From: Thermoplasmatota archaeon
GTDB taxonomy: Archaea > Thermoplasmatota > Penumbrarchaeia > Penumbrarchaeales > Penumbrarchaeaceae
Reading direction: 5' to 3'
DNA: 64,000 bases
Assembly (NCBI GenBank): GCA_025457865.1
Contig: JALOTP010000016.1
Location: forward strand, 516 to 64,515
The notes below the pieces were generated by a model. It ran no database searches. It was given only the letters and a program-made list of their open reading frames with translations, and was not told the DNA's origin. The translations under genes and the position numbers were made by a program. Shown here in pieces: positions 1 through 12,015 of this stretch (position 1 is the first letter of the stretch; the number at the start of each line of letters is the position of its first letter).

Positions 1-3000
1 AGAATGACCGTTATGGTGGCATTGTCCGAGCCGGAGTTCCCTGAACCGTCCTTGACCGTGAGCGTGACTGAGTAATTCCCCGGTTCCGTGAAATTGAACG
101 AGACAACGGTCTCGTAAAGGGCCACCTCTCTATCCTTGAGATGGATCGTCCAGATCCAGTTGCTTATCACGACGTTGTCAGTTGAGTTCGTGCCGTTAAG
201 TATAACAACCGTTCCTTCAAATACTGTTTGGTCAGACCCAGCATCGGCAGTGGGCGGTGTGATGTCCCTCACCGTCACTGTAAGGTTGTCTGTACCAGTG
301 TTCCCTGCTGCATCCGCAACGGTCAGCGTTATCTCAAAAACACCCGGATCATCGAAAACGTATGTCGGAGTTGGACCGTACAATACACGTTCCATCTTAT
401 CAAAGAAAATCCATCTGGACTCCGCTATACCTACATTGTCCTCGCTGCCTGAGCTGTTGAAGACCACCTCAGTTCCTTCTGGAACGGTCAGGTCCTTTCC
501 CGCGTTCGCAATGGGTAGCGTTATGTCGTCTATCGAAATATTGACGGTCTTGATGTCCCAGTTCCGGGCAAGGTCCAGCGCTTTCAGTGTGATGAAATGA
601 TCCCCGGGATCCAAAAAGGTATGATATACCCTCTCTCCGTGAAGGGTCGCCGAGCGAACGGGTCCGTCGATCATCCATATCCAATCTGTTATCCCTATGT
701 TGTCATACGATCTGGAACCGTCCAGCAAGATGCTCTCATCCTCATTGTAATAGGAGTTCATCGAAAACTCTGCTGTGGGTGATATGATATCTATTACGGC
801 TACGGACCCGGATAGGTTCGCCCAGTTTCCCTCAGGATCGCATGCATGAAAGCAGTAATTGATTGTATCAGTTGAGTTCAGAGGAACGGTCAATTCATGG
901 GTGAAGATGTTAGAGCCTACCAAACTGATGTTCATCCTAACATCTGCATTGGTCCAGTATTCGACATATACCGAAGATACAGCCATGTTGTCTTGGACCT
1001 CGACTGTAAATGTCAGTTCCTCCCCTGTCCCTATCTGGTTGAGTGTAAGGTCCCGGATGAAGACTGGTGGGAACAGGTCGAATACGTCCACTCGTTTCTC
1101 GATTGTGGAATTCCAGTTGGAAGAGTTGTCAACCACCGAGAACCTGTAGAAGAGTTCGGAATAGTTCAGCGGTATCTCGATATCCAAAAAGAAATTTTCC
1201 TTGGAAAGGGACATGGTTGAATTGTATCCAAATTCAATTCCGAACCGATACTCGACATGCACAGATGATATGGCAATGTTATCGGAAACGGAAACAATGA
1301 ACTTGAACGGTTCTCCGGTGGATGCATTTGAAGGTGTCAGGTCGGATATGAACTCCGGTCCGTCATTATCTTTGACCGGCACGGTCTTCTCAGTTGTATT
1401 TGCCCAGTTCCCCGCAAGGTCCCTTGCACGGAATATGTAATAGAGCGGTTCGATGGAATGTGTTGGTATGATGATGTCATATAGATAAGGCCCTGTCCCA
1501 CTCATGGAGCGATTGATGATGGTTCCATTCCCGAACCGGAACTGGACATAGACCACTGATACCCCAACATAGTCAGTGACTTCGATCTCGAAACCGAACC
1601 TGTCCCCAGTGGTGGCGTTCCCATCGCTTAGGTCTTGTCCGAAGACAGGCTTGATATTATCATTTGTCATGTTCAACTTCAATACAAAAACATCAAAAGC
1701 ACCATTATGGGTTGTATCATAAGCTCCATCTGTAACCGGAAAGAGATTGGGATCATAAAAAGTGTCTCCAACAACATATACAAATCGGTCATTATCTACA
1801 ACAATACCATAACCGCCATCACGTTTTCCTCCCCCTAAGTATGTTGAATATTCTAATTCAGACCCATTAGCACTTAATTTTAAAGCATATGCTTCGATAT
1901 CCCCGTTATATGAAACATCATCTGCACCTTTTGTGACTGGAAAATCAATGCTTACAGTTTCTCCAGTAATATAGGCATTTGCATCCGGGTCAAGAGATAT
2001 TCCATTGCCTTGTTCTTGGTCATTTCCACCTATTAAGGTCGAATAGATCAAATACGAGCCCGTTTTATCGAGCTTTGTCACGAATATATCCAAATAACCA
2101 TTAAAGGTCGTATCGTATGCTCCTTCTGTTGTTGGAAAATCACCGTATGCTTCGAAATATTGTCCTGTACTACCAGTAATATAAACATCATTTTTTTGAT
2201 CTAAAGTAATAGCGCGACTCAGATCATGATCTTTTCCTCCTATGAAAGTGGAGAATATCAAGTTTATACCAAAAGGATCAAATTTAGATACAAATACATC
2301 CATTAAACCATTATAAGTTGTGTCAAATGAGCCAGAAGTAACAGGAAAGTTCCAGCTTTCTGTGAACCCTGTCAGGTAAATATTTTTATTTTGATCCAAA
2401 GTCACAGAAGTACTATAATCCATTTTAGTACCTCCGATAAATGTAGAAAATAATAGAAAAGAACCATTGGAATCGAGTTTTGTCAAGAAAGCATCCATCC
2501 AATTACCATTATATGTGTTATCATATGCGTTATTAGAGACAGGATAATTCGATGAATTTGTATTACCGGTAATAATAATATTTTCAGAAGTATCAATTGC
2601 GATACCCTTGCCATAATCACTTCCTTTTCCCCCTAAATACGTTGATAAGATAATTGATGAACCCGTGTTGTTAATTTTTATAATAAAAGCATCAAAATCA
2701 CCATTTTGGGTCGTATCAAATGATCCATTAATCATAGGAAAGTCTTTACTTTTTATAAAACCTGTAACATAAGAACAACCATTAGTATCAATTGTTATAG
2801 ATAAACCGCAATCATAATCATTTCCACCGATATAGGTGGAATAAACAAGTGAGGATCCCGTAGGGTCAAGTTTTGTAATAAAAACATCACCAATTCCATA
2901 ATTAAAGGTCCGGTCAAATGCTCCTATTGATGTAGGATAATCAGTCTCGGCATATCCTGTAGTAAAGATGTTCCCGTCTTTATCTAAAGCTATAGCAGTT

Positions 3001-3863
3001 CCTCCATCTTCATCACATCCGCCGATGAACGTTGAATAGATCAGGGGGTCTATCACAACCTCTCTCTCTCGGTCATAATTATTCAATGAAAAAGAGTAAA
3101 CATCTTGCGTAATCAAGGAAAAGGTGCATTTTATATTAGACATAGTGTTATCGTTATAATAGGCATAGATCCCAGAATCTATAATATCCCAATATTTTGT
3201 TCTTATCAAGAGATCCCCTTTATCAGTCAATGATAATGATTCATGGCCTTCTATCTTGATCCTGATATTATTTGGGTCAGCCCCTGGGTTAAGTATGATG
3301 TCATACTTAATACCATTTTGATCATAATAATAATAAAAATCTATATTATTCCACAGATCCTTATATTCAATTTTTTTATAATTTGGGACATTCCTATGCC
3401 ATTTTTCCGAAACATTCCCTATAAAAAAATTTGTATTCCAATCACATCGCTCCATACCTGTAGGAATAATATTATTCGAACCGATGAAAGAATATTTTAT
3501 TACCACTCCCAATTCGTGAAGGGATTTGTTAGTATCTATACGAGGATTGAAAAGGAAATCCGGATCATAAACATTTTTTTTACATTGTTCGACCTCTCTG
3601 GATCTATAGAACATGCTATTGGGCGTGAAGTATAGATTTCCTCCCCCAGAATAATAAAGTATCTCACTAGAGTTCAACTGACCCTCATTTCGAATAAAAT
3701 TACTTCTTGATAAAGATTCAGCTTTATCTCTATAATTAATTATTGAATCCTCAGACTCTTTATTTATGCTGGTTGCATAAAATGCAGAAAAAAGGAGCAT
3801 AGCTATTGGAAAAAATGACGTGAAAAAAAAAATTGGCGAGTGATACAACTTTTCATTCTTCAT
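1..3863 (-). CDS. SBBP beta-propeller / PKD-domain cell-surface protein, paralog of 4511..8662. Partial: the 3' end runs off the window.
   Basis: It is absent from the ORF track because no stop lies inside the window. The ATG at 3863-3861 gives MKNEKLYHSPIFFFTSFFPIAMLLFSAFYA..., a hydrophobic signal or anchor. The following ...SNFIRNEGQLNSSEILYYSGGGNLYFTPNSMFY... is colinear with the neighbour's ...SYFIQNIDQLDEDILYYSVEGNIYFSSNCVYY.... The codon at 8-6 (inside NSGSDNATITV, matching NSGSDNVTVTV of the neighbour) is in the same phase as the ATG at 3863. The track reports no minus-strand ORF fragment in that phase in between (its only minus-strand entry here, 469..684, is in another phase), so the frame appears open throughout. 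I did not translate every codon. Confidence 0.75.
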   Translation of the reverse strand, partial: MKNEKLYHSPIFFFTSFFPIAMLLFSAFYATSINKESEDSIINYRDKAESLSRSNFIRNEGQLNSSEILYYSGGGNLYFTPNSMFYRSREVEQCKKNVYDPDFLFNPRIDTNKSLHELGVVIKYSFIGSNNIIPTGMERCDWNTNFFIGNVSEKWHRNVPNYKKIEYKDLWNNIDFYYYYDQNGIKYDIILNPGADPNNIRIKIEGHESLSLTDKGDLLIRTKYWDIIDSGIYAYYNDNTMSNIKCTFSLITQDVYSFSLNNYDREREVVIDPLIYSTFIGGCDEDGGTAIALDKDGNIFTTGYAETDYPTSIGAFDRTFNYGIGDVFITKLDPTGSSLVYSTYIGGNDYDCGLSITIDTNGCSYVTGFIKSKDFPMINGSFDTTQNGDFDAFIIKINNTGSSIILSTYLGGKGSDYGKGIAIDTSENIIITGNTNSSNYPVSNNAYDNTYNGNWMDAFLTKLDSNGSFLLFSTFIGGTKMDYSTSVTLDQNKNIYLTGFTESWNFPVTSGSFDTTYNGLMDVFVSKFDPFGINLIFSTFIGGKDHDLSRAITLDQKNDVYITGSTGQYFEAYGDFPTTEGAYDTTFNGYLDIFVTKLDKTGSYLIYSTLIGGNDQEQGNGISLDPDANAYITGETVSIDFPVTKGADDVSYNGDIEAYALKLSANGSELEYSTYLGGGKRDGGYGIVVDNDRFVYVVGDTFYDPNLFPVTDGAYDTTHNGAFDVFVLKLNMTNDNIKPVFGQDLSDGNATTGDRFGFEIEVTDYVGVSVVYVQFRFGNGTIINRSMSGTGPYLYDIIIPTHSIEPLYYIFRARDLAGNWANTTEKTVPVKDNDGPEFISDLTPSNASTGEPFKFIVSVSDNIAISSVHVEYRFGIEFGYNSTMSLSKENFFLDIEIPLNYSELFYRFSVVDNSSNWNSTIEKRVDVFDLFPPVFIRDLTLNQIGTGEELTFTVEVQDNMAVSSVYVEYWTNADVRMNISLVGSNIFTHELTVPLNSTDTINYCFHACDPEGNWANLSGSVAVIDIISPTAEFSMNSYYNEDESILLDGSRSYDNIGITDWIWMIDGPVRSATLHGERVYHTFLDPGDHFITLKALDLARNWDIKTVNISIDDITLPIANAGKDLTVPEGTEVVFNSSGSEDNVGIAESRWIFFDKMERVLYGPTPTYVFDDPGVFEITLTVADAAGNTGTDNLTVTVRDITPPTADAGSDQTVFEGTVVILNGTNSTDNVVISNWIWTIHLKDREVALYETVVSFNFTEPGNYSVTLTVKDGSGNSGSDNATITVI

Positions 3864-3885
3864 AGTATCACGTTTATTAGCTCAA

Positions 3886-4377
3886 CTAAATGCAATTTAT
3901 AGTGAACGTTCCAGAGGTCCAGGCTGTAGCAATATTTGTATTTACAATAGTATATACATAGAAATCAACATAAATTGTTGAAGATTTTGAAACACCATTG
4001 TATGTATGTGTGGGTGTATCGAGATCAGATCCTGGATTAGTAATATTTTGCCAAGCGGAGGCATAAGCCTTTACTTGAGTAGGGCTATTAACAACATAAT
4101 ACGTCAGGTTCCAATATTGACACCCGCTGGTCGCTCCTGGCCAATTGAGGCCAAATAAAATATCGACAATCACATGAACATTATCTTGACCGTTTTGTGC
4201 TACAATTATTGCTTGGGTCAAAGTCGGAGGATTGATCGTGTATGTTATCGTCGCTGGCCCAGCATTGGTATTTATTGAATGTGTTGCCGGAACTTCAGCC
4301 GCATCCACATAAATAGGTATGAGAACCGTAATGCATAACAAAGGAAACACCATTCCTATCACAACTTTTCCCATCAT
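3886..4377 (-). CDS. Small secreted protein of unknown function (163 aa), paralog of 8653..9165
   Basis: The N-terminus is hydrophobic (MMGKVVIGMVFPLLCITVLIPIYVDA). It aligns by eye with the 170-aa ORF: QAIIVAQNGQDNVHVIVDILFGLNWPGA..YWNLTYY versus QSVIVTAGDNVRVCVDLTLSMNFTGA..FWNITFY. Both end in (T/V)INCI. It sits 22 nt upstream of the SBBP gene start on the same strand. Confidence 0.6.
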   Translation of the reverse strand: MMGKVVIGMVFPLLCITVLIPIYVDAAEVPATHSINTNAGPATITYTINPPTLTQAIIVAQNGQDNVHVIVDILFGLNWPGATSGCQYWNLTYYVVNSPTQVKAYASAWQNITNPGSDLDTPTHTYNGVSKSSTIYVDFYVYTIVNTNIATAWTSGTFTINCI

Positions 4378-4510
4378 TTAATACCACCAACCCCCAATAT
4401 TATACTAATTATATAAAATCTATTATTAAATGAGTCATAAATAGGTCCAGAATGAATGGAAAAAAAAACATATTGATTTTCACTCCCTCTACTTATCCTC
4501 TTAGGTAGGA

Positions 4511-7500
4511 TTATTCGTCGGTTCTGTTTGATCCATTATCGCGAACATTAGCTTTAGTTCTTATCCGTATGACAAGGAAAAGGACCAATGAGCAGGTCAT
4601 GATGATGAGGAGCAGAAGGAAGACAAGCAAAAACCCGTATCTCGGTCCTGTCGCTCCATTATCATCATCGTGAGGAATATCCTTCGGTAGGACCGTTACG
4701 GTGACATTGTCCGAACCTGAGTTCCCTGAACCGTCCTTGACCGTGAGCGTGACAGTATAATTCCCCTGTTCCGTGAAATTGAACGAAACAACGGACCCGT
4801 AGAGGACGACATCTCTGTCTCCGAGATGAATGGTCCATATCCCGTTGCTTATCCCGACGTTGTCAGTTGAGTTCGTGCCGTTAAGTAATACAACTGTCCC
4901 TTCAAGGACCGTCTGGTCGGATCCGGCATCGGCAGTGGGCGGTGTTATGTCCATAACCGTAATTGTAATGTTATCCGTTCCCCTGCTCCCTGCAGCATCC
5001 GTCACGGTCAGTACTATCTCGAATATACCCGGGTCCTTGAAGATGTATGTTGGGACCGGACCGTACAATACTCTATCTATTCCATCAACGAAATCCCATC
5101 TGAATTCAATTATTCCGACGTTGTCCTCACTTACGGAAGCATTGAATGTGACCTCGGTATCCTCCGGAGCGACCAGGTCCTTTCCTGCTCTAGCAATGGG
5201 CGGTGTTATGTCATTTATATTTATTTTCATGGTCTTTATGTCCCAGTTACCTGCAAGGTCGGTCACCTTGAGTGAGACATCGTACCCTCCGGGGTTGAAG
5301 AATGTATGATCTGCTGTCTGTCCACTTCGGGTCGCCGAATATGATGCCCCATCTATGAACCATGTCCAATCCACGAGCCCTATGTTGTCGTATGAAAGGG
5401 AACCGTCCAATGTCACGACCTTATCCTCATTGTAATCACTTTTCATAACGAACTCCGCTTTGGGGGGGATGGTATCCACGACCGTTACGGAACCATAAAG
5501 GCTCGCCAGATTGCCTTGCATGTCGGATGCGTTGAAGCAGTATTGTATCGGTTCCGTGGAGTTGGTGGGAACGCTAAGTTGATGTTCGAACATATTTGTA
5601 CCTGACATGCTGACATTCGTCCGTTCACCTGCCGTCCAGTATTCGACATATACTGAAGAAACTCCTATGTTGTCCTGGACCTCGACAGTAAACGTCAGTT
5701 CCTCCCCTGTCCCTATCTGGTTGAGTGTCAGGTCCCGGATGAAGACCGGTGGGAACAGGTCGAACACGTCCACTCGTTTCTCTGTCGTGGAATTCCAGTT
5801 GGAAGAGTTATCAACCACCGAGAACCTGTAGAAGAGTTCGGAATAGTTCCGCGGTATCTCGATATCCAAAAAGAAATTTTCCTTGGAAAGGGACATGGTT
5901 GAATTGTTTTTATCCTCTGATCCAAACCTATACTCGACCTGAACGGAAGATATGGCAATGTTATCGGATACGGAAACGATGAACTTGAACGGTTCTCCGG
6001 TGGATGCATTGGAAGGTGTCAGGTCGGACAGGAACTCCGGTCCGTCGTTGTCCTTGACCAAAACGGTCCTCTCTGTTGTATTTGCCCAATTCCCTACAAG
6101 GTCCCTTGCACGGAATATATAATGGAGCGATTCGGTGGAATGTGTTGATATGTTGATCTCGTATCGATAAGGTCCTGTACCGCTCATGGAACGATTGATG
6201 ATGGTCCCCTCCCCGAATCGGAATTGGACAAAAACACCCGAAATCCCAATATCGTCGGTTACTTCTGTTTTGAACTCGAACCTGTCCCCTGTCGTGGCAT
6301 TTTCATCGCTTAAGTCCTGTCCGAAGACAGGTTTGATGTTGTCAACAGTCGTGTTCAATTTTGTAATGATGACATCAGCCTCTCCATAGTGTAGGGTTTG
6401 ATAAGCACCTTCGGTCGTCGGGTATTGAACAACTTCATCATAGAACGAGAAACCGGTGATACATACTACATCATCATCTAATGCTATCCCTTTACCATCA
6501 TCACGTTTTCCCCCTCCAAGATAGGTTGAATATTCAAGGAAAGAACCCGATGAATTGAGCTTTGTCACGACAACGTCAATTCTACCATTAAATGTACTAT
6601 CCTCCGCTCCTTTCGTTATAGGATAATCATTGCTCTCGGTTATTCCTGTAATAAATGCATCTCCATTGTTGTTTACAATTATGTCCTCTCCCCCATCTTG
6701 ATTACTCCCGCCTATGAATGTAGAGAAGATCAGATCCGAACCGCTTGAATTGAGCTTAGTCACAAAGATGTCCAATCCTCCATTATAGGTCGTATCGTAT
6801 GCTCTTTCGGTCGTAGGGAAATCGCTATATGCCTCCGGAGAGTAGTCTCCGGTTTGACCTGTGATATATACCTTATTTTCCCGGTCCAATGATATTCCAT
6901 ATCCAAAATCATCATCATTGCCCCCGATGAAGGTCGAAAAGATCAAGAACGAACCATTCACATCGAACTTGGTAACAAATACATCCATATTTTCATTGAC
7001 ATTTAATATTGAATCGTAAGCATCTACGGTCGTAGGATAATCAAAGCTGCTGGTAAAACCTGTGATGCAAATGTTGTCGTGAGAATCCAAAGCTATCGCC
7101 ATAGCATAATCATTGGATGACCCGCCAACATAGGTTGAAAAAATTAAATTGGAACCGGTGCTATCGAGCTTCGTTACAAACGCGTCCATCCAGCGGCTAT
7201 CATCATTATATTTATCATCATAGGCATTTACTACTGGATAGTTGGATGAATTCGTAAAACCCGTTATGATGATATTTCTAAAAGGATCTATTGTTATCCC
7301 CCCAGATGAATCCCTGCATTTCCCCCCGATAAAAGTTGAAAATATCAGGGATGACCCTGTTGGGTCCAGCTTTGTAACGAACGCATCGTAATCGCCATTG
7401 TGCAGAGTATCATATGCTCCTGCGGTGACGGGATAGTCATTGCTTTGTGTGTCACCGGTTACGTATGTACAGCCGTCTGGATAGATCGAGATAGAACTGC

Positions 7501-8662
7501 CAAAATCGTATCTACTTCCTCCCAGGAACGTAGAATAGACCAGGGAGGACCCCGCAGCATCCATTTTTGTGACCATCACATCGTAACCACCATTGCTTAT
7601 ATGGTCGAACGCTCCTGCGGTAGTTGGATAATCGATCTGGCTATCCTCACTATAGCCTGTTATGTACATATTTTCATCTTTATCTAAAACGATTGAATAT
7701 CCACAATCTTCACCATTTCCACCTATGAATGTCGAATAAATGAAAGGGTCTATTACCACTTTCCTTGAGACATCATAAGAGCCAAGGTCGAATCCGAACA
7801 CATCTCTCTCAATTAATATAAAATCGCTCTGGATACTTCCATTTGGTTCGTCTGAGTAGAATGATATCAATTTTGAGTCACGTACCTCACCTAAAGCTGT
7901 CTCAATTAGTAGATCACCATTCTTGTCAATACCGATATTCAATTGGCCTTCGACCCGTATCCTGATTTCTGAGGGGTCCGCTCCGGGTTTTAATATCAGG
8001 TCGTACTTGATGGTGCCTTCATTTATGCGATATATCAGGTCGATCCCGTCCCATAGATCGAAATAAACAATTTCAAAATAGTTGGGAACGTTCGTATACC
8101 ATTTCTCCGGATCGTTACCCTTGAAGTAATTCGTATTCCAGGAGCATCTTTCCTTACCGACCGGGGCCACTGGATTGCATCCGGTAAAATAATATTTCAG
8201 GACAACTCCCCGTTCATGAAAGAACATAGGGATATTCTCTCTTGGACCAAAGGCCTCATTGGAAGTTGTCTCATCCGGGTCGTACGGTTCTTTAATAGAA
8301 TATACGTAATATACGCAATTTGAAGAAAAGTAAATATTTCCCTCAACCGAATAATAGAGGATGTCCTCATCGAGCTGATCGATGTTTTGAATAAAGTAAC
8401 TAGATCTTAAAGAGGCAGCTTTCTCTAGAAAATGACCATTCAATGAACGATCGATAACCTTGTTTTCAACATTTCTAACACCTGCAGTATATTGGGGATG
8501 GAAAAATATCATAGACAAGAGAATGATCGAACACCCTGCCATCAGGTAACAGGACCTTCTTCGGACAATCATCATATCGCTAATCCAATTAGAGAGTGCG
8601 GTCTCCAGACATGTCCATTCACCTTTTCGTTCTATTGTGTCAAGGTTGTTTTTCAAATACAA
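4511..8662 (-). CDS. Large cell-surface protein: N-terminal domain typical of SBBP proteins, about 8 SBBP beta-propeller repeats, three Ig-like repeats, three PKD domains and a C-terminal TM anchor
   Basis: It has a recurrent SBBP-type repeat (YSTF(I/L)GGxxxDxGxxIxxDxxxNxYITGxTxSxDYPTTxGAYDxxxNGxxDAFVTKLxxxGSxLxFSTFIGG). It has PKD-like segments (LDGSLSYDNIGLVDWTWF...YDVSLKVTDLAGNW; FNASVSEDNVGIIEFRWDF...IVLTVTDAAG). A hydrophobic stretch GFLLVFLLLLIIMTCSLVLFLVIRIR lies near the C-terminus. The true start may be the MM at about 8575 (MMIVRRRSCYLMAGCSIILLSMIFF). Confidence 0.9.
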   Translation of the reverse strand: MYLKNNLDTIERKGEWTCLETALSNWISDMMIVRRRSCYLMAGCSIILLSMIFFHPQYTAGVRNVENKVIDRSLNGHFLEKAASLRSSYFIQNIDQLDEDILYYSVEGNIYFSSNCVYYVYSIKEPYDPDETTSNEAFGPRENIPMFFHERGVVLKYYFTGCNPVAPVGKERCSWNTNYFKGNDPEKWYTNVPNYFEIVYFDLWDGIDLIYRINEGTIKYDLILKPGADPSEIRIRVEGQLNIGIDKNGDLLIETALGEVRDSKLISFYSDEPNGSIQSDFILIERDVFGFDLGSYDVSRKVVIDPFIYSTFIGGNGEDCGYSIVLDKDENMYITGYSEDSQIDYPTTAGAFDHISNGGYDVMVTKMDAAGSSLVYSTFLGGSRYDFGSSISIYPDGCTYVTGDTQSNDYPVTAGAYDTLHNGDYDAFVTKLDPTGSSLIFSTFIGGKCRDSSGGITIDPFRNIIITGFTNSSNYPVVNAYDDKYNDDSRWMDAFVTKLDSTGSNLIFSTYVGGSSNDYAMAIALDSHDNICITGFTSSFDYPTTVDAYDSILNVNENMDVFVTKFDVNGSFLIFSTFIGGNDDDFGYGISLDRENKVYITGQTGDYSPEAYSDFPTTERAYDTTYNGGLDIFVTKLNSSGSDLIFSTFIGGSNQDGGEDIIVNNNGDAFITGITESNDYPITKGAEDSTFNGRIDVVVTKLNSSGSFLEYSTYLGGGKRDDGKGIALDDDVVCITGFSFYDEVVQYPTTEGAYQTLHYGEADVIITKLNTTVDNIKPVFGQDLSDENATTGDRFEFKTEVTDDIGISGVFVQFRFGEGTIINRSMSGTGPYRYEINISTHSTESLHYIFRARDLVGNWANTTERTVLVKDNDGPEFLSDLTPSNASTGEPFKFIVSVSDNIAISSVQVEYRFGSEDKNNSTMSLSKENFFLDIEIPRNYSELFYRFSVVDNSSNWNSTTEKRVDVFDLFPPVFIRDLTLNQIGTGEELTFTVEVQDNIGVSSVYVEYWTAGERTNVSMSGTNMFEHQLSVPTNSTEPIQYCFNASDMQGNLASLYGSVTVVDTIPPKAEFVMKSDYNEDKVVTLDGSLSYDNIGLVDWTWFIDGASYSATRSGQTADHTFFNPGGYDVSLKVTDLAGNWDIKTMKININDITPPIARAGKDLVAPEDTEVTFNASVSEDNVGIIEFRWDFVDGIDRVLYGPVPTYIFKDPGIFEIVLTVTDAAGSRGTDNITITVMDITPPTADAGSDQTVLEGTVVLLNGTNSTDNVGISNGIWTIHLGDRDVVLYGSVVSFNFTEQGNYTVTLTVKDGSGNSGSDNVTVTVLPKDIPHDDDNGATGPRYGFLLVFLLLLIIMTCSLVLFLVIRIRTKANVRDNGSNRTDE

Positions 8663-9165
8663 TTTATTACAAACGTTGTAAATGACGAGCCATTAGCAAG
8701 TTCTACGATTGGCGACCCCCCATAGCAGTGAACATCACTAGAAACATCCACTGTTATCGTGTCACCTTTTTGGACTGAGGTATAGAGGTAATTTTTCATA
8801 TCGTGGTCGTTGCCAAGAGTGCCGTTAACCCTCAATGTTCCCGAAGGGGTATAGACTGCAATATTATTGGTATTTATTTGATAAAAAGTTATGTTCCAAA
8901 ATCCATAAGTGACCATAGCTCCCGTAAAGTTCATTGAAAGCGTTAGATCGACACATACACGTACATTATCGCCTGCGGTGACAATTACTGATTGAGACGG
9001 GGGTGATGAGGGGCAGGTATCGAATGTGACACCGGAATTCTGGACATGTGAATTGACAGCGATATTAGATGGAACCAGAGCAGCACTTACATGTGTCATC
9101 ATCATCATAGTGATGGCTGACAGGATTATTACCATTCCATTTTGCACTGCTATCTTACTTATCAT
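8653..9165 (-). CDS. Small secreted protein of unknown function (170 aa), paralog of 3886..4377
   Basis: It has a hydrophobic N-terminus (GMVIILSAITMMMMTHVSA) and the same C-terminal FVINCI ending. It overlaps the longest ORF of the downstream SBBP gene by 10 nt. Confidence 0.6.
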   Translation of the reverse strand: MISKIAVQNGMVIILSAITMMMMTHVSAALVPSNIAVNSHVQNSGVTFDTCPSSPPSQSVIVTAGDNVRVCVDLTLSMNFTGAMVTYGFWNITFYQINTNNIAVYTPSGTLRVNGTLGNDHDMKNYLYTSVQKGDTITVDVSSDVHCYGGSPIVELANGSSFTTFVINCI

Positions 9166-9730
9166 ATTTTCTTCTCCTAACCTTTCTGGGACATTAAGGG
9201 CATTAACCTCAGTGTATTTATATTATTCCAACTCACAGTATGTGGTATGTAAATATTGTACCTCTGAGTAAAAAAGGTATTGTAAGTTGTCACTCTACTC
9301 ACCTTACCCTTATCACTAAAGAAAACCCCCTTAAAAGCTATGGTTTACAACATAATATGAAGAACATCAATGAGAGTAGAGCAGTTGCCGATTCATTCCA
9401 TTAAGGAGAAACAACCCTCAAACGAATGGGAAGCTTTAGCGGTTCTGGCTTGAGTATGAAAGACAAGGTTGGAGGTTCGGCTCGTTGGATGAGTTCATCG
9501 GTTGGTATGATCGTCGATTGCATGGTGCATAATGGGTGGAGATGGGTGAATGTCCTGGTGATGCGGTTTATAGAAAGAACTAGCCTGAAAGCATATTAGG
9601 TCTGTTATGGGGGATGGTTAGATGAACGAACCCTATCTGCGAAATAATATCTGTGCTCTACATTATTCACATTGAGGTGAAAGATGGAAATAGGACGTTG
9701 CGTTGGTCTTTTTAGGCTCTACCGCAGCGT

Positions 9731-10924
9731 GTGAGAACGATGACCGAGAACGGTGATGGTCCAAAGACGGCCCCCCTGGATAATGGGGGCGGGAGGAGGG
9801 CCCCTACGGGCTTTCAGCTCCTGGTCTTTTCTACCATTGTGACCACCATCACACTGATCGCCTTCCTCTACGTGGGGGTCATAGCTTCGCTCGTCATGAG
9901 CCCGGACAACTCCCTGCACTGGCCTTATCTTGCGGTCCCTGTCCTGCTTACCCTTTTCATGATGGTCTCCCAGATAGCCTCACACATTGACCACCGCGCC
10001 TACATAAGGCCTCTGTACCTTATGTCATCGGTCCTGATGGGAGCCTTCGCCTACATGGTGATGGCGGCGTTCATGGTGACCCCGATCCTTATCCCCGCAT
10101 ACTTACTGGACATCGATTCCATCTGGACGTCCCTCCGCATCATGTTCGCAGCGGTCATCCTCGTCCCCGTCGTTTGGGGCCTCATAGAGGCCCGCATCCT
10201 CAGGACAAGGTGGTTCAAGGTCCCTCTTCCCGGATTGAAGAAAGCCGTCAAGGTCGCTATGATTTCGGACGTCCACCTGGGACTTCTCGTAGGCAGGATG
10301 AGGCTTGGGAAGGTCCTTTCGATAATGGAGGGTTTCCGACCTGACGTCATAGCGGTCGTGGGGGACCTCTACGACACCAATCCCAGGTTCAACACCCGCT
10401 TCAGACCGATGCTCGAACGTATGGCATCAATGGCGCCTGCCTATGCCGTCTTCGGCAACCATGAGTATTTCAACGGGCATGAAGCGATAGGGAAGGAGCT
10501 CAGCGAGCTGGGGTTCAATGTCCTCAGGGGCCGCGCGGTGAAGGACCCAAAGACCGGTATCAACGTGGTCGGGATCGATGATCCCTCGTTCTTCGGTTCC
10601 GGAGAGGTCAGAAGGGAACAGCTCCTGTCCTTGCTAAGGGAGGTTCCGGAGGGTGAGCCCCTCATCCTGCTCGACCATCAGCCACTGCTCTTCAGTGCCG
10701 CTAAGGGCGCCAGACCGCTCCTTCAGCTCTCCGGCCATACGCATGCGGGACAGATCTGGCCCGCATCCTTCATCACGAAACGCATCTACAAGGACGGCCA
10801 CAGGGGGCTCAGCAGGGAGGGTGCCTCCACCCTGTTCGTATGTGTGGGGACCGGTACCTGGGGCCCGCCCATGAGGGTCCTGGCCCCACCGGAAATGGCC
10901 CTCTTCGAACTGGTCCCGGCATGA
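9731..10924 (+). CDS. Membrane-anchored calcineurin-like metallophosphoesterase
   Basis: About 4 N-terminal hydrophobic helices precede the phosphoesterase motifs ISDVHLG, VGDLYD, GNHEYF and LSGHTHAGQ. The first ATG is at 9740; the track starts at a GTG at 9731. Confidence 0.85.
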   Translation: MRTMTENGDGPKTAPLDNGGGRRAPTGFQLLVFSTIVTTITLIAFLYVGVIASLVMSPDNSLHWPYLAVPVLLTLFMMVSQIASHIDHRAYIRPLYLMSSVLMGAFAYMVMAAFMVTPILIPAYLLDIDSIWTSLRIMFAAVILVPVVWGLIEARILRTRWFKVPLPGLKKAVKVAMISDVHLGLLVGRMRLGKVLSIMEGFRPDVIAVVGDLYDTNPRFNTRFRPMLERMASMAPAYAVFGNHEYFNGHEAIGKELSELGFNVLRGRAVKDPKTGINVVGIDDPSFFGSGEVRREQLLSLLREVPEGEPLILLDHQPLLFSAAKGARPLLQLSGHTHAGQIWPASFITKRIYKDGHRGLSREGASTLFVCVGTGTWGPPMRVLAPPEMALFELVPA

Positions 10925-10935
10925 AGGTGGATGCT

Positions 10936-12015
10936 TCAGGCGATCCCGTCATTGTCGCTATCCGGGATGCGGCCGTCGGTGGAGTCCCCGTTACCGGATT
11001 CCACTCCGTCTATGAGCATGTCGTTGTCCGAATCCCAGTCGTTGGGATCGAGCCCCAGGACGAACTCCATGGGGTCGGATAATCCATCGCCATCGGTATC
11101 GGGGTTGAACGGGTCAGTTCCACGAATGTACTCGTCCTTATCGAGCAGCCCATCGCCGTCGGAGTCCTTGTTGTCCGGAGGAACAGGGGGGCCAGGGTTT
11201 GGCACTGGTGGGGTAGGGTTCCCGCTGCCTCCAGAGGTCCCGTCGTTGTCCGAGTCGTCCAGCCTACCGTCAGTGGAGTCCCCCGAGCCCATTTCCACCC
11301 CGTCAATGAGGCCGTCGTTGTCCGTGTCCCAGTCGTTGGGATCGAGACCTATGGAGAACTCATTTGGGTCCCAGAGGCCATCGCCGTCGGTATCGGGGTT
11401 GAACGGGTCCGTTCCTCTTAGGTACTCGTCCTTGTCAAGAAGCCCATCATGGTCGCTGTCCTTGTTGTCGTCCGGGACCGGTGGTCCCGGGTTGGGGACA
11501 GGTGGGGGAGGTATCCCAGGTTCGCCCGGTTCTGTTCCTTTATATATCCATGGGTATTCATCGTCAGGGTCAAGGATACCATCCCCGTCCGTATCCGGGT
11601 TGTTAGGGTCGGTCGAGATGTAGACCCTTAGCCCGGTCTGAGGGTGAACGTATGCGAACCTGTAGTACTCTGCATAGTTCGTGTAGGGGTTGGGAACATC
11701 GGGTATCCTGAACTGGGCATACTCCTCTCCACCGAACCAATCGTTATCCATGTCAGCATCGGTCGGGTCGTTGGGGTTCAGTCCATTGTCCGCCTCCCAC
11801 CCGTCGGGGAGTCCATCTCCGTCAGTGTCGGAGTTGTTGGGGTCCGATCCGTAGAGGTATTCCTCCAGGTTCGTGAGCCCGTCGTTGTCCGGGTCCAGGT
11901 CCCAGTCGTCCCCCGACAGAGGGTTGAGGGCCGAGACACAGCTCACCATTATCGCAAGTCCGAGCATGCCCGCAAGGGCCGTTACATAGGTTCTCATCTT
12001 TCTTGCCTCCTGCAT
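10936..12015 (-). CDS. Secreted thrombospondin-type-3 (TSP3) calcium-binding repeat protein
   Basis: It has a signal-like N-terminus (MRTYVTALAGMLGLAIMVSCVSA; the probable start is the M at 11997). Repeated DxDxDGxxDxxE motifs are present (DPDNDGLTNLEEY, DTDGDGLPDGWE, DTDGDGILDPDDE). Confidence 0.85.
   Translation of the reverse strand: MQEARKMRTYVTALAGMLGLAIMVSCVSALNPLSGDDWDLDPDNDGLTNLEEYLYGSDPNNSDTDGDGLPDGWEADNGLNPNDPTDADMDNDWFGGEEYAQFRIPDVPNPYTNYAEYYRFAYVHPQTGLRVYISTDPNNPDTDGDGILDPDDEYPWIYKGTEPGEPGIPPPPVPNPGPPVPDDNKDSDHDGLLDKDEYLRGTDPFNPDTDGDGLWDPNEFSIGLDPNDWDTDNDGLIDGVEMGSGDSTDGRLDDSDNDGTSGGSGNPTPPVPNPGPPVPPDNKDSDGDGLLDKDEYIRGTDPFNPDTDGDGLSDPMEFVLGLDPNDWDSDNDMLIDGVESGNGDSTDGRIPDSDNDGIA
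10945..11505 (-). repeat. In-frame tandem duplication, 2 x ~294 nt (~98 aa), inside the TSP3 protein
   Basis: Residues ~171-259 read PPVPNPGPPVPDDNKDSDHDGLLDKDEYLRGTDPFNPDTDGDGLWDPNEFSIGLDPNDWDTDNDGLIDGVEMGSGDSTDGRLDDSDNDG. Residues ~269-357 read PPVPNPGPPVPPDNKDSDGDGLLDKDEYIRGTDPFNPDTDGDGLSDPMEFVLGLDPNDWDSDNDMLIDGVESGNGDSTDGRIPDSDNDG. Confidence 0.8.

Follow-up and report, generated by a model that had tools for sequence, protein, structure and literature searches.

A low-GC surface-protein islet in an uncultured Thermoplasmatota archaeon: cassettes of two lineages and the probable reassortment of their heads and stalks

How did two neighbouring cassettes, each composed of a gene for a small secreted protein and a gene for a giant protein with SBBP and PKD domains, come to lie in tandem in the genome of a Thermoplasmatota archaeon, with 3' halves that resemble each other far more than their 5' halves? 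The cassettes occupy the left end of a stretch of 64,000 nucleotides (nt), hereafter called the window (GCA_025457865.1, contig JALOTP010000016.1; G000:C84:516-64515 in our own naming). A first-pass annotation, made from the letters of this DNA, had proposed either a duplication followed by gene conversion of the 3' halves, or a recombinational shuffling of propeller heads onto a common stalk. Our analysis favors shuffling. The locus is probably a flexible islet of surface-protein genes with a low guanine-cytosine (GC) content, in which two cassettes from two old lineages stand side by side and have had their heads and stalks reassorted by homologous recombination.

The source genome, G000, is a 2.7-Mb metagenome-assembled genome (MAG) in 108 contigs with a GC content of 53.8%. 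It was compared with G001, a sister species, and with G002, an outgroup species whose genome is 97% complete, the three being species of one genus; every genome used here was a MAG or a metagenome contig. The left and right large genes are called copies A and B, and the small open reading frames (ORFs) upstream of them s3 and s4, respectively. The divergence between A and B, and between species, was followed on codon-aware alignments with a sliding profile and with the synonymous (dS) and non-synonymous (dN) divergence of each segment. The minus-strand order of the four genes, encoding a 170-amino-acid (aa) protein, a 1383-aa protein, a 163-aa protein, and a second large protein, was exactly that of the first-pass annotation (Table 1).

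Copies A and B were found to be colinear over 3.1 kb, as claimed for their 3' halves, but the accompanying identity floor of 75-80% was too high, since the actual floor was 60-70%. The sliding profile was clearly not flat. Synonymous sites were saturated in the heads (proportion of synonymous differences, pS, 0.74-0.82), in keeping with the earlier view that the 5' halves are much more diverged, and dS fell to 0.35 (pS 0.20-0.36) in a tract of Ig-like repeats (A 945-1545, B 5630-6226), rose to 1.64 in the mid stalk, and decreased again to 0.63 in the 3' stalk and 0.32 in the anchor. The near-identical patch previously noticed within the tract (1021-1225 against 5703-5907) indeed holds only 8 differences in 205 nt, and the longest exact runs shared by the two copies (57, 39, and 35 nt) all fall within A 1012-1225. 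Since the three Ig-like repeats, r1 to r3, are mutually just 36-40% identical, the similarity of the tracts is not noise from internal repeats. The reported contrast in composition was also recovered, with a GC content of 28.3% at 2401-2460 and of 43.3% at 7081-7140.

As copy A runs off the window, the contig was read to the left, where the gene ends at position -174 with a C-terminal transmembrane (TM) anchor like that of copy B. Copy A is thus 1345 aa long, with zero internal stops or frameshifts. The dN/dS ratio was 0.1-0.25 in those head, tract, and stalk segments for which dS was measurable, and it reached 0.4-0.7 over the 67 codons of the C-terminal anchor. The values outside the anchor reveal purifying selection, and thus that both copies have been maintained. 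The possibility that the left copy was a decaying pseudogene was rejected on these grounds, and also because its counterpart in an independently assembled contig (L030, see below) differs by a single residue. Further copies had been thought possible to the left of the window, but none was found: an FtsX/MacB permease gene ends next to copy A, and the array therefore comprises two tandem copies and no third.

The strongest evidence for reassortment came from G002, whose single large gene, O (1385 aa), combines a B-type head with an A-type stalk across one sharp breakpoint. Upstream (5') of this breakpoint, O is B-like at 780 of 892 informative sites and A-like at the other 112; downstream (3'), it is A-like at 254 of 291 and B-like at 37. 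A maximum chi-square test on these A-like and B-like sites gave a value of 573.5, which was reached in none of 1000 permutations, the largest permuted value being 18.8. The switch occurs between positions 972 and 951 of copy A (5654 and 5633 of copy B), 40-60 nt from the near-identical patch that holds the longest runs of A-B identity. Since the breakpoint adjoins it, this patch marks the crossover zone that links the two-copy array to the hybrid. The shuffling of heads onto stalks, one of the two histories suggested by the first-pass annotation, is therefore borne out by O, and also by an A-type head that sits on an unrelated stalk in another contig (L026, see below).

The same chromosomal site was found in three states. 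Between the FtsX/MacB permease gene and a phosphoesterase gene, G000 carries two cassettes; G002 carries one, formed by an ortholog of s4 (92% identity) and O; and G001 carries none, the two flanking genes being separated by ~130 nt. The islet of G000 spans ~9.9 kb, with a GC content of 41.8% versus 53.8% for the genome, and all of its parts are low in GC. Its left limit lies at about window position -209, within the 113 nt that separate the stop codons of the permease gene (-288) and of copy A (-174), and its right end at about 9690, at the motif CATTGAGGTGAAAGATGGAAATA, which is also present at the empty site of G001. No tRNA genes were found at the islet edges, and no target-site duplications were obvious there by eye.

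The flanks support the species tree ((G000, G001), G002); over 3.5 kb of the permease region, G000 and G001 are 93% identical, compared to about 82% with G002. Five flanking orthologs gave a background dS of 0.52-0.93 between G000 and G002, against which several parts of the islet appear much younger. Between copy B and O, dS was 0.16 in the 5' part of the head (alignment columns 50-525, 94% identity, most 50-codon windows reaching 96-99%, except for a dip to 87-91% at columns 350-450) and 0.17 in the tract; it was 0.18 between s4 and its G002 ortholog. Between copy A and O, it was 0.29 in the mid stalk and 0.09 in the 3' stalk (85-98% nt identity), whereas the mid stalks of copy B and O differ by 1.37. 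The low-dS parts include the s4 gene and a non-coding spacer (93-97% identity versus ~82-85% in the flanks). The 3' part of the B and O heads (columns 525-800), only ~78% identical, has a dS of 0.97, that is, the background level. As segment dS values of 0.09-0.29 contrast with 0.52-0.93 in the flanks, these data indicate that parts of the islet were exchanged between the G000 and G002 lineages long after their split.

The flanks themselves are a mosaic among the three species. In the ~800 nt of the phosphoesterase gene nearest to the islet, G001 diverges from both G000 and G002 (54-76% identity), and farther from the islet G000 and G001 return to 89-97%. Farther to the right, a blastn comparison of window positions 10972-11517 with G001 and G002 returned offset secondary matches, for example 10972-11213 against 11267-11470.

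Genes encoding DUF7948 and SBBP domains are not rare in this archaeal family: roughly 5-15 were counted per genome, in 24 species covering all 7 genera. Many of them lie at contig ends, so that the true number is probably higher. In a head tree built on the DUF7948 region, copy A grouped with genes of contigs L034, L026, L022, and L023 (clade A, support 100/100), and copy B with O and L033 (clade B, support 100/99); genes of other genera fell in the same polytomy as these two clades. The small genes follow the same division. The proteins encoded by s3 and s4 are homologs with only 30% aa identity (blastp 1e-21), and no further relatives of either were found in the G000 genome. Elsewhere, three relatives of s3 (98, 80, and 79% identity) each lie upstream of an A-type head, and a relative of s4 (83%, in L033) lies upstream of a B-type head. 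As the heads of copies A and B sit in separate clades, each shared with genes of other genomes, the array brings two lineages side by side and is not a fresh duplication.

Several of these contigs show that the A-type cassette is not bound to the locus. In L022 (GCA_041304585.1, JBFYMZ010000297.1) and in two Joint Genome Institute (JGI) contigs, L023 and L025, an A-type cassette (~80% nt identity) lies downstream of a gene for a DsbH-like thioredoxin. The corresponding site in G000 (C14:21399-25346) is cassette-free, and its next gene is aIF5B-like. The DsbH genes of G000 and L022 cease to be homologous about 300 nt before the gene end, and insertion of the cassette may have remodelled this 3' end. 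Homology between the array and such stand-alone A-type cassettes begins at window position 4456, 79 nt upstream of the s3 ATG. In L026, an A-type small gene and head, with 73-87% nt identity, continue up to the head/stalk boundary, past which the sequence is unrelated to A, B, and O (48-64%). Copy A is thus best read as an A-lineage module (upstream region, s3, and head) carried by a stalk of the type resident at this locus. For the stalk of copy B (residues 985-1383), no closer relative was found in a set of 5.8 billion proteins, where the matches were swamped by generic PKD proteins; the informative matches were restricted to its own copies and to G002.

A different join was observed in L033, where the stop codon of an A-type stalk is followed directly, on a 5-nt microhomology (TGATG), by an s4-type upstream region (corresponding to window position 9369), a small gene, and a B-type head. 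This arrangement would correspond either to O-type units placed head to tail by illegitimate recombination or to a circular form of such a unit.

These observations can be assembled into a mechanism. The data show the anatomy of the locus, the mosaic and its breakpoint, the states with zero, one, and two copies, the two lineages, and purifying selection; the direction of the crossover and the biological pay-off are inferred. The islet inserted between the permease and phosphoesterase genes carries two complete, maintained cassettes that each consist of their own upstream region, a small Sec-secreted, beta-rich INCI protein, and a predicted, sequon-rich surface protein of ~1350 aa anchored at its C-terminus. 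In the latter, DUF7948 and an SBBP propeller form the head, and three Ig-like repeats followed by three PKD domains the stalk. Homologous recombination, both in the conserved Ig-like tract where head meets stalk and close to the 3' end, would reassort heads and stalks and change the copy number, and a crossover between two such tracts would relate the two-copy array of G000 to the B-head/A-stalk gene of G002. This crossover could have run in either of two directions: the G002 line may have reduced a two-copy array by a Lepore-type deletion, or an O-like gene of the G000 line may have taken up a circular molecule or the product of an unequal crossover. Whole units would in addition be joined head to tail by microhomology-mediated illegitimate recombination, as in L033, and segments of the islet would have moved recently between species by recombination. 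As has been suggested for islands of surface-protein genes in other prokaryotes, the pay-off would be that an exposed head, of an adhesin or receptor-like kind, can vary together with its linked small partner.

Some points weigh against this account. Deletion in the G002 line and insertion in the G000 line both fit, and the cassette segments are younger than the species split. Whichever the direction, the ~78% block between copy B and O (columns 525-800) requires at least one further event, and a donor for it was found in none of G000, G001, and G002. All of the material comes from MAGs and metagenome contigs, and L030 may share or be related to the sample of the MAG, in which case it would not be fully independent. 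Lastly, surface exposure, glycosylation, and a role in the recognition of viruses or partners are properties that we infer from domains and sequons only.

Could the array instead have arisen in situ, by tandem duplication of one ancestral cassette, after which the heads and small genes diverged fast and the 3' halves underwent gene conversion? The same orientation, the common two-gene architecture, and the long colinearity would all follow from such a history, as would the low dS of the tract and of the 3' end; the spacers upstream of s3 and s4 also have a short motif in common, and both lineages must share an ancestor at great depth. The low-dS tract does fit conversion, as the first-pass annotation had it, as well as crossover. 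The recent in-situ duplication that went with this proposal is the part that did not stand: the A and B heads are not mutual closest relatives, each grouping with genes of other genomes in a tree where other genera join the same polytomy; cassettes at other loci of other genomes share ~80% identity with the A module, whose identity to the copy B head is only about 59%; the small ORFs have diverged to 30% identity; an A-type head occurs on the unrelated stalk of L026; and copy A carries the stalk type resident at the locus (A-O dS 0.09-0.29). We therefore consider in-situ duplication unlikely. For the same reason, a model of recent tandem duplicates homogenized by conversion was rejected, as the two genes are adjacent and share a low-dS tract but are not each other's closest relatives outside it.

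An assembly artefact, in which a chimeric MAG contig would have joined alleles, strains, or distant loci across the shared tract, also deserved attention, as the genome is a 108-contig MAG, the contig C84 begins only 341 nt beyond the copy A stop, and exact runs of up to 57 nt could mislead an assembler. But the whole array, with the same flanks, was recovered at 99.9% identity over 14.3 kb in a separate JGI assembly (L030; JGI 3300037461, 19.1 kb), and two contigs from other samples, L027 and L034, span the junction from the end of the B stalk through s3 into the A head. Because their nt identity is 95-96%, these two represent different strains. An artefact is thus very improbable. We give even less credence to an explanation without recombination, according to which low synonymous divergence would reflect selection on the nucleotide sequence itself, through an overlapping element, an RNA structure, or a codon constraint. 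The tract has a GC content at third codon positions of 0.5-0.7, above that of the heads, and short antisense ORFs overlap it, as such a constraint might predict; yet no constraint of this kind can yield a gene that is B-like on one side of a point and A-like on the other, and the breakpoint test effectively refutes it. Moreover, L026, an A-lineage gene, has unrelated sequence at the position of the tract, and the low-dS segments extend to s4 and to a non-coding spacer.

With regard to L030, 11 of its 16 differences from C84 fall within the first 75 nt of C84 (window positions -514 to -439), a cluster that may be due to strain heterogeneity or to the edge of a recombined segment. The two contigs break off in the permease gene, at points no more than about 90 nt apart.

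Table 1. Features of the islet and of its right flank. Positions are those of the window; copy A continues to the left of it.
Feature	Position	Strand	Description
Copy A	3-3863, open at window edge	-	DUF7948, SBBP, and PKD
Copy A stalk	1-944	-	End of Ig-like repeat r3 and three PKD domains; runs 174 nt left of the window to the TM anchor and stop
Copy A shared tract	945-1545	-	Ig-like repeats r1-r3; includes the 205-nt patch 1021-1225
Copy A breakpoint interval	951-972	-	O switches from B-like (5') to A-like (3')
Copy A head	1546-3863	-	Signal/TM, DUF7948, SBBP beta-propeller; GC 34.7%; A lineage
s3	3886-4377	-	163 aa, A-lineage small secreted protein, signal peptide, C-terminal INCI
Inter-cassette spacer	4378-4510	-	Homology with stand-alone A-type cassettes starts at 4456
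Copy B	4511-8662	-	1383 aa; DUF7948, SBBP, and PKD
Copy B stalk	4511-5629	-	Three PKD domains, TM anchor, distinct cytoplasmic tail; type observed in this strain group only
Copy B shared tract	5630-6226	-	Contains breakpoint interval 5633-5654 and patch 5703-5907
Copy B head	6227-8662	-	DUF7948 and SBBP; GC 41.5%; B lineage
s4	8653-9165	-	170 aa, B-lineage small secreted protein, signal peptide, C-terminal INCI
Right-edge spacer	9166-9690		Unit boundary in L033 at 9369
IS481-family (rve) transposase C-terminal relic	9389-9662	+	Degraded, stop-interrupted; just outside the L033 unit boundary
Calcineurin-like phosphoesterase gene	9731-10924	+	Core gene of the right flank; its ~800 nt nearest to the islet are a mosaic among the three species

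Both large proteins scored well above the curated Pfam cut-offs for DUF7948 (PF25778, cut-off 27 bits; 163.8 bits for A and 162.9 for B), SBBP (PF06739, 20.5 bits; 104.8 and 53.9), and PKD_4 (PF18911, 27 bits; 116.7 and 139.2). These families are uncharacterized, so that membership says nothing about function, and a literature search returned nothing specific on archaeal SBBP/DUF7948 surface proteins. As read from the translations, copies A and B have hydrophobic N-termini, a C-terminal hydrophobic stretch with a basic tail, and 28-29 N-x-S/T sequons; they look like anchored, N-glycosylated surface proteins. The TTG start listed for copy B overlaps s4 by 10 nt. When copy B is aligned with copy A, and in view of the signal-like MMIVRRR..., the ATG at 8575 is the likely true start; the JGI gene call on L030 places the start later still (1333 aa).

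The small proteins matched no Pfam family. Structure prediction gave, with moderate confidence only, a signal helix and a nine-strand beta sandwich (predicted local distance difference test, pLDDT, 74.7 for the best model and 50-57 for four others), and a Foldseek search of the PDB returned only weak, generic beta-sandwich or cupredoxin-like matches (TM-score ≤ 0.34), which pointed to no function. Outside the A and B lineages, the INCI protein was found once, as a relative in G020. At this locus (L009, G020:C17, 9745-15093), the sole small INCI homolog from another genus (191 aa, plus strand) is convergent to a large DUF7948 gene. This large gene is split into four minus-strand ORFs (260, 225, 392, and 699 aa) and is either a pseudogene or the result of a run of assembly frameshifts.

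The unit formed by the upstream region, the small INCI protein, and the propeller head was encountered on at least three stalks or in as many contexts, always in matched combination (s3 with A heads, s4 with B heads). This strict pairing of the small protein with a head lineage suggests a functional partnership. A more specific and rather speculative idea is that the small protein would be the cognate partner of its head (a cap, a co-receptor, an assembly factor, or a protective protein), the two forming a transferable specificity module that recombination at the conserved Ig-like tract would attach to resident stalks. If true, such a module would be an N-terminal mirror image of polymorphic-toxin/immunity modules or of the receptor-binding-protein/chaperone modules of phages, and would serve cell-cell, cell-virus, or cell-substrate recognition.

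The right edge of the islet carries a trace of a mobile element. The relic at 9389-9662 is 85% identical in nt to positions 52-325 of contig C21 of G000, whose open frame matches positions 206-276 of 284 of NF033577 (E 4.4e-7) as well as rve_3 (E 0.004). The window's own relic gave no Pfam match, and its assignment to the IS481 family of insertion sequences (IS) comes through this open copy only. The open copy lies at the very start of C21, which suggests that the assembly is interrupted at copies of the IS.

Sediments and wetlands commonly harbor uncultured Thermoplasmatales, whose cell surfaces are almost uncharted. The locus offers a compact and well-resolved case, with one site found in three copy-number states, its breakpoint mapped, and its segments dated, of how a surface-protein family may diversify by head/stalk reassortment, crossover-driven changes in copy number, microhomology-mediated joining of units, and exchange between species. 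It also flags an undescribed family of small secreted proteins tied strictly to particular heads. The mechanism is textbook knowledge and the archaeal gene pair is undescribed; no new principle emerges, and the value of the locus is that of a documented example that could guide structural or interaction studies.

Lepore-type fusions are hybrid genes that arise by unequal crossing-over between tandem paralogs, and tandem paralogs are also known to undergo concerted evolution. The situation described here is alike in that a two-copy array and a one-copy hybrid are related by a single crossover in a stretch of high identity, with a homogenized tract between diverged neighbours. In G002, the one gene found between the same flanks corresponds to copy B in its 5' part and to copy A in its 3' part, and its breakpoint falls next to the longest stretch of identity. 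Unlike in the classical case, the partners are two old lineages instead of recent duplicates, and exchange between species is overlaid on the crossover.

A second parallel is provided by polymorphic toxins of the contact-dependent inhibition (CDI)-Rhs type, with their orphan C-terminal cassettes and immunity genes (PMC3482391), in which a large surface protein likewise has a variable module that travels with a small linked gene, alternative modules are found in tandem, and recombination occurs at a conserved tract beside the variable part. In our locus, however, the variable module is the N-terminal head and not the C-terminal tip, where a TM anchor is found; the small gene, located upstream, encodes a Sec-secreted product rather than an intracellular immunity protein; and both copies are complete genes of the expressed type and not start-less orphans. 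A polymorphic-toxin system was rejected, as no toxin family was detected by Pfam in either large protein and the small gene, whose product has a signal peptide, precedes the large one. We likewise rejected a silent-cassette mechanism of antigenic variation (pilE/pilS or vlsE type), because both copies are full-length, with starts, signals, and an upstream small gene and spacer of their own, and have dN/dS ratios of 0.1-0.25 over head, tract, and stalk.

The closest known concept is that of a flexible genomic island encoding surface proteins. The cell-wall-associated flexible island of Haloquadratum walsbyi generates surface-protein diversity through homologous recombination and mobile elements under purifying selection (PMC4535781), and López-Pérez et al. 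(PMC4033161) describe islands of aquatic prokaryotes that are exchanged by homologous recombination, with peaks of increased substitutions at their boundaries. The islet resembles such islands in its variable content at a fixed site, low GC content, and genes for exposed, glycoprotein-like products, and also in its signs of homologous recombination, mobile-element traces, purifying selection, and altered divergence of the flanks. Close relatives have different gene content at this one conserved site, its composition is atypical and an IS relic lies at its edge, and recombination is visible both in the low dS of the islet and in the mosaic phosphoesterase gene. In comparison with these islands, the islet is very small (5-10 kb, with one or two cassettes), and its variation is partly intragenic, through reassortment of heads and stalks, where flexible islands replace whole gene clusters; and it belongs to uncultured Thermoplasmatales, mostly from sediments and wetlands, with a gene pair that was previously undescribed.

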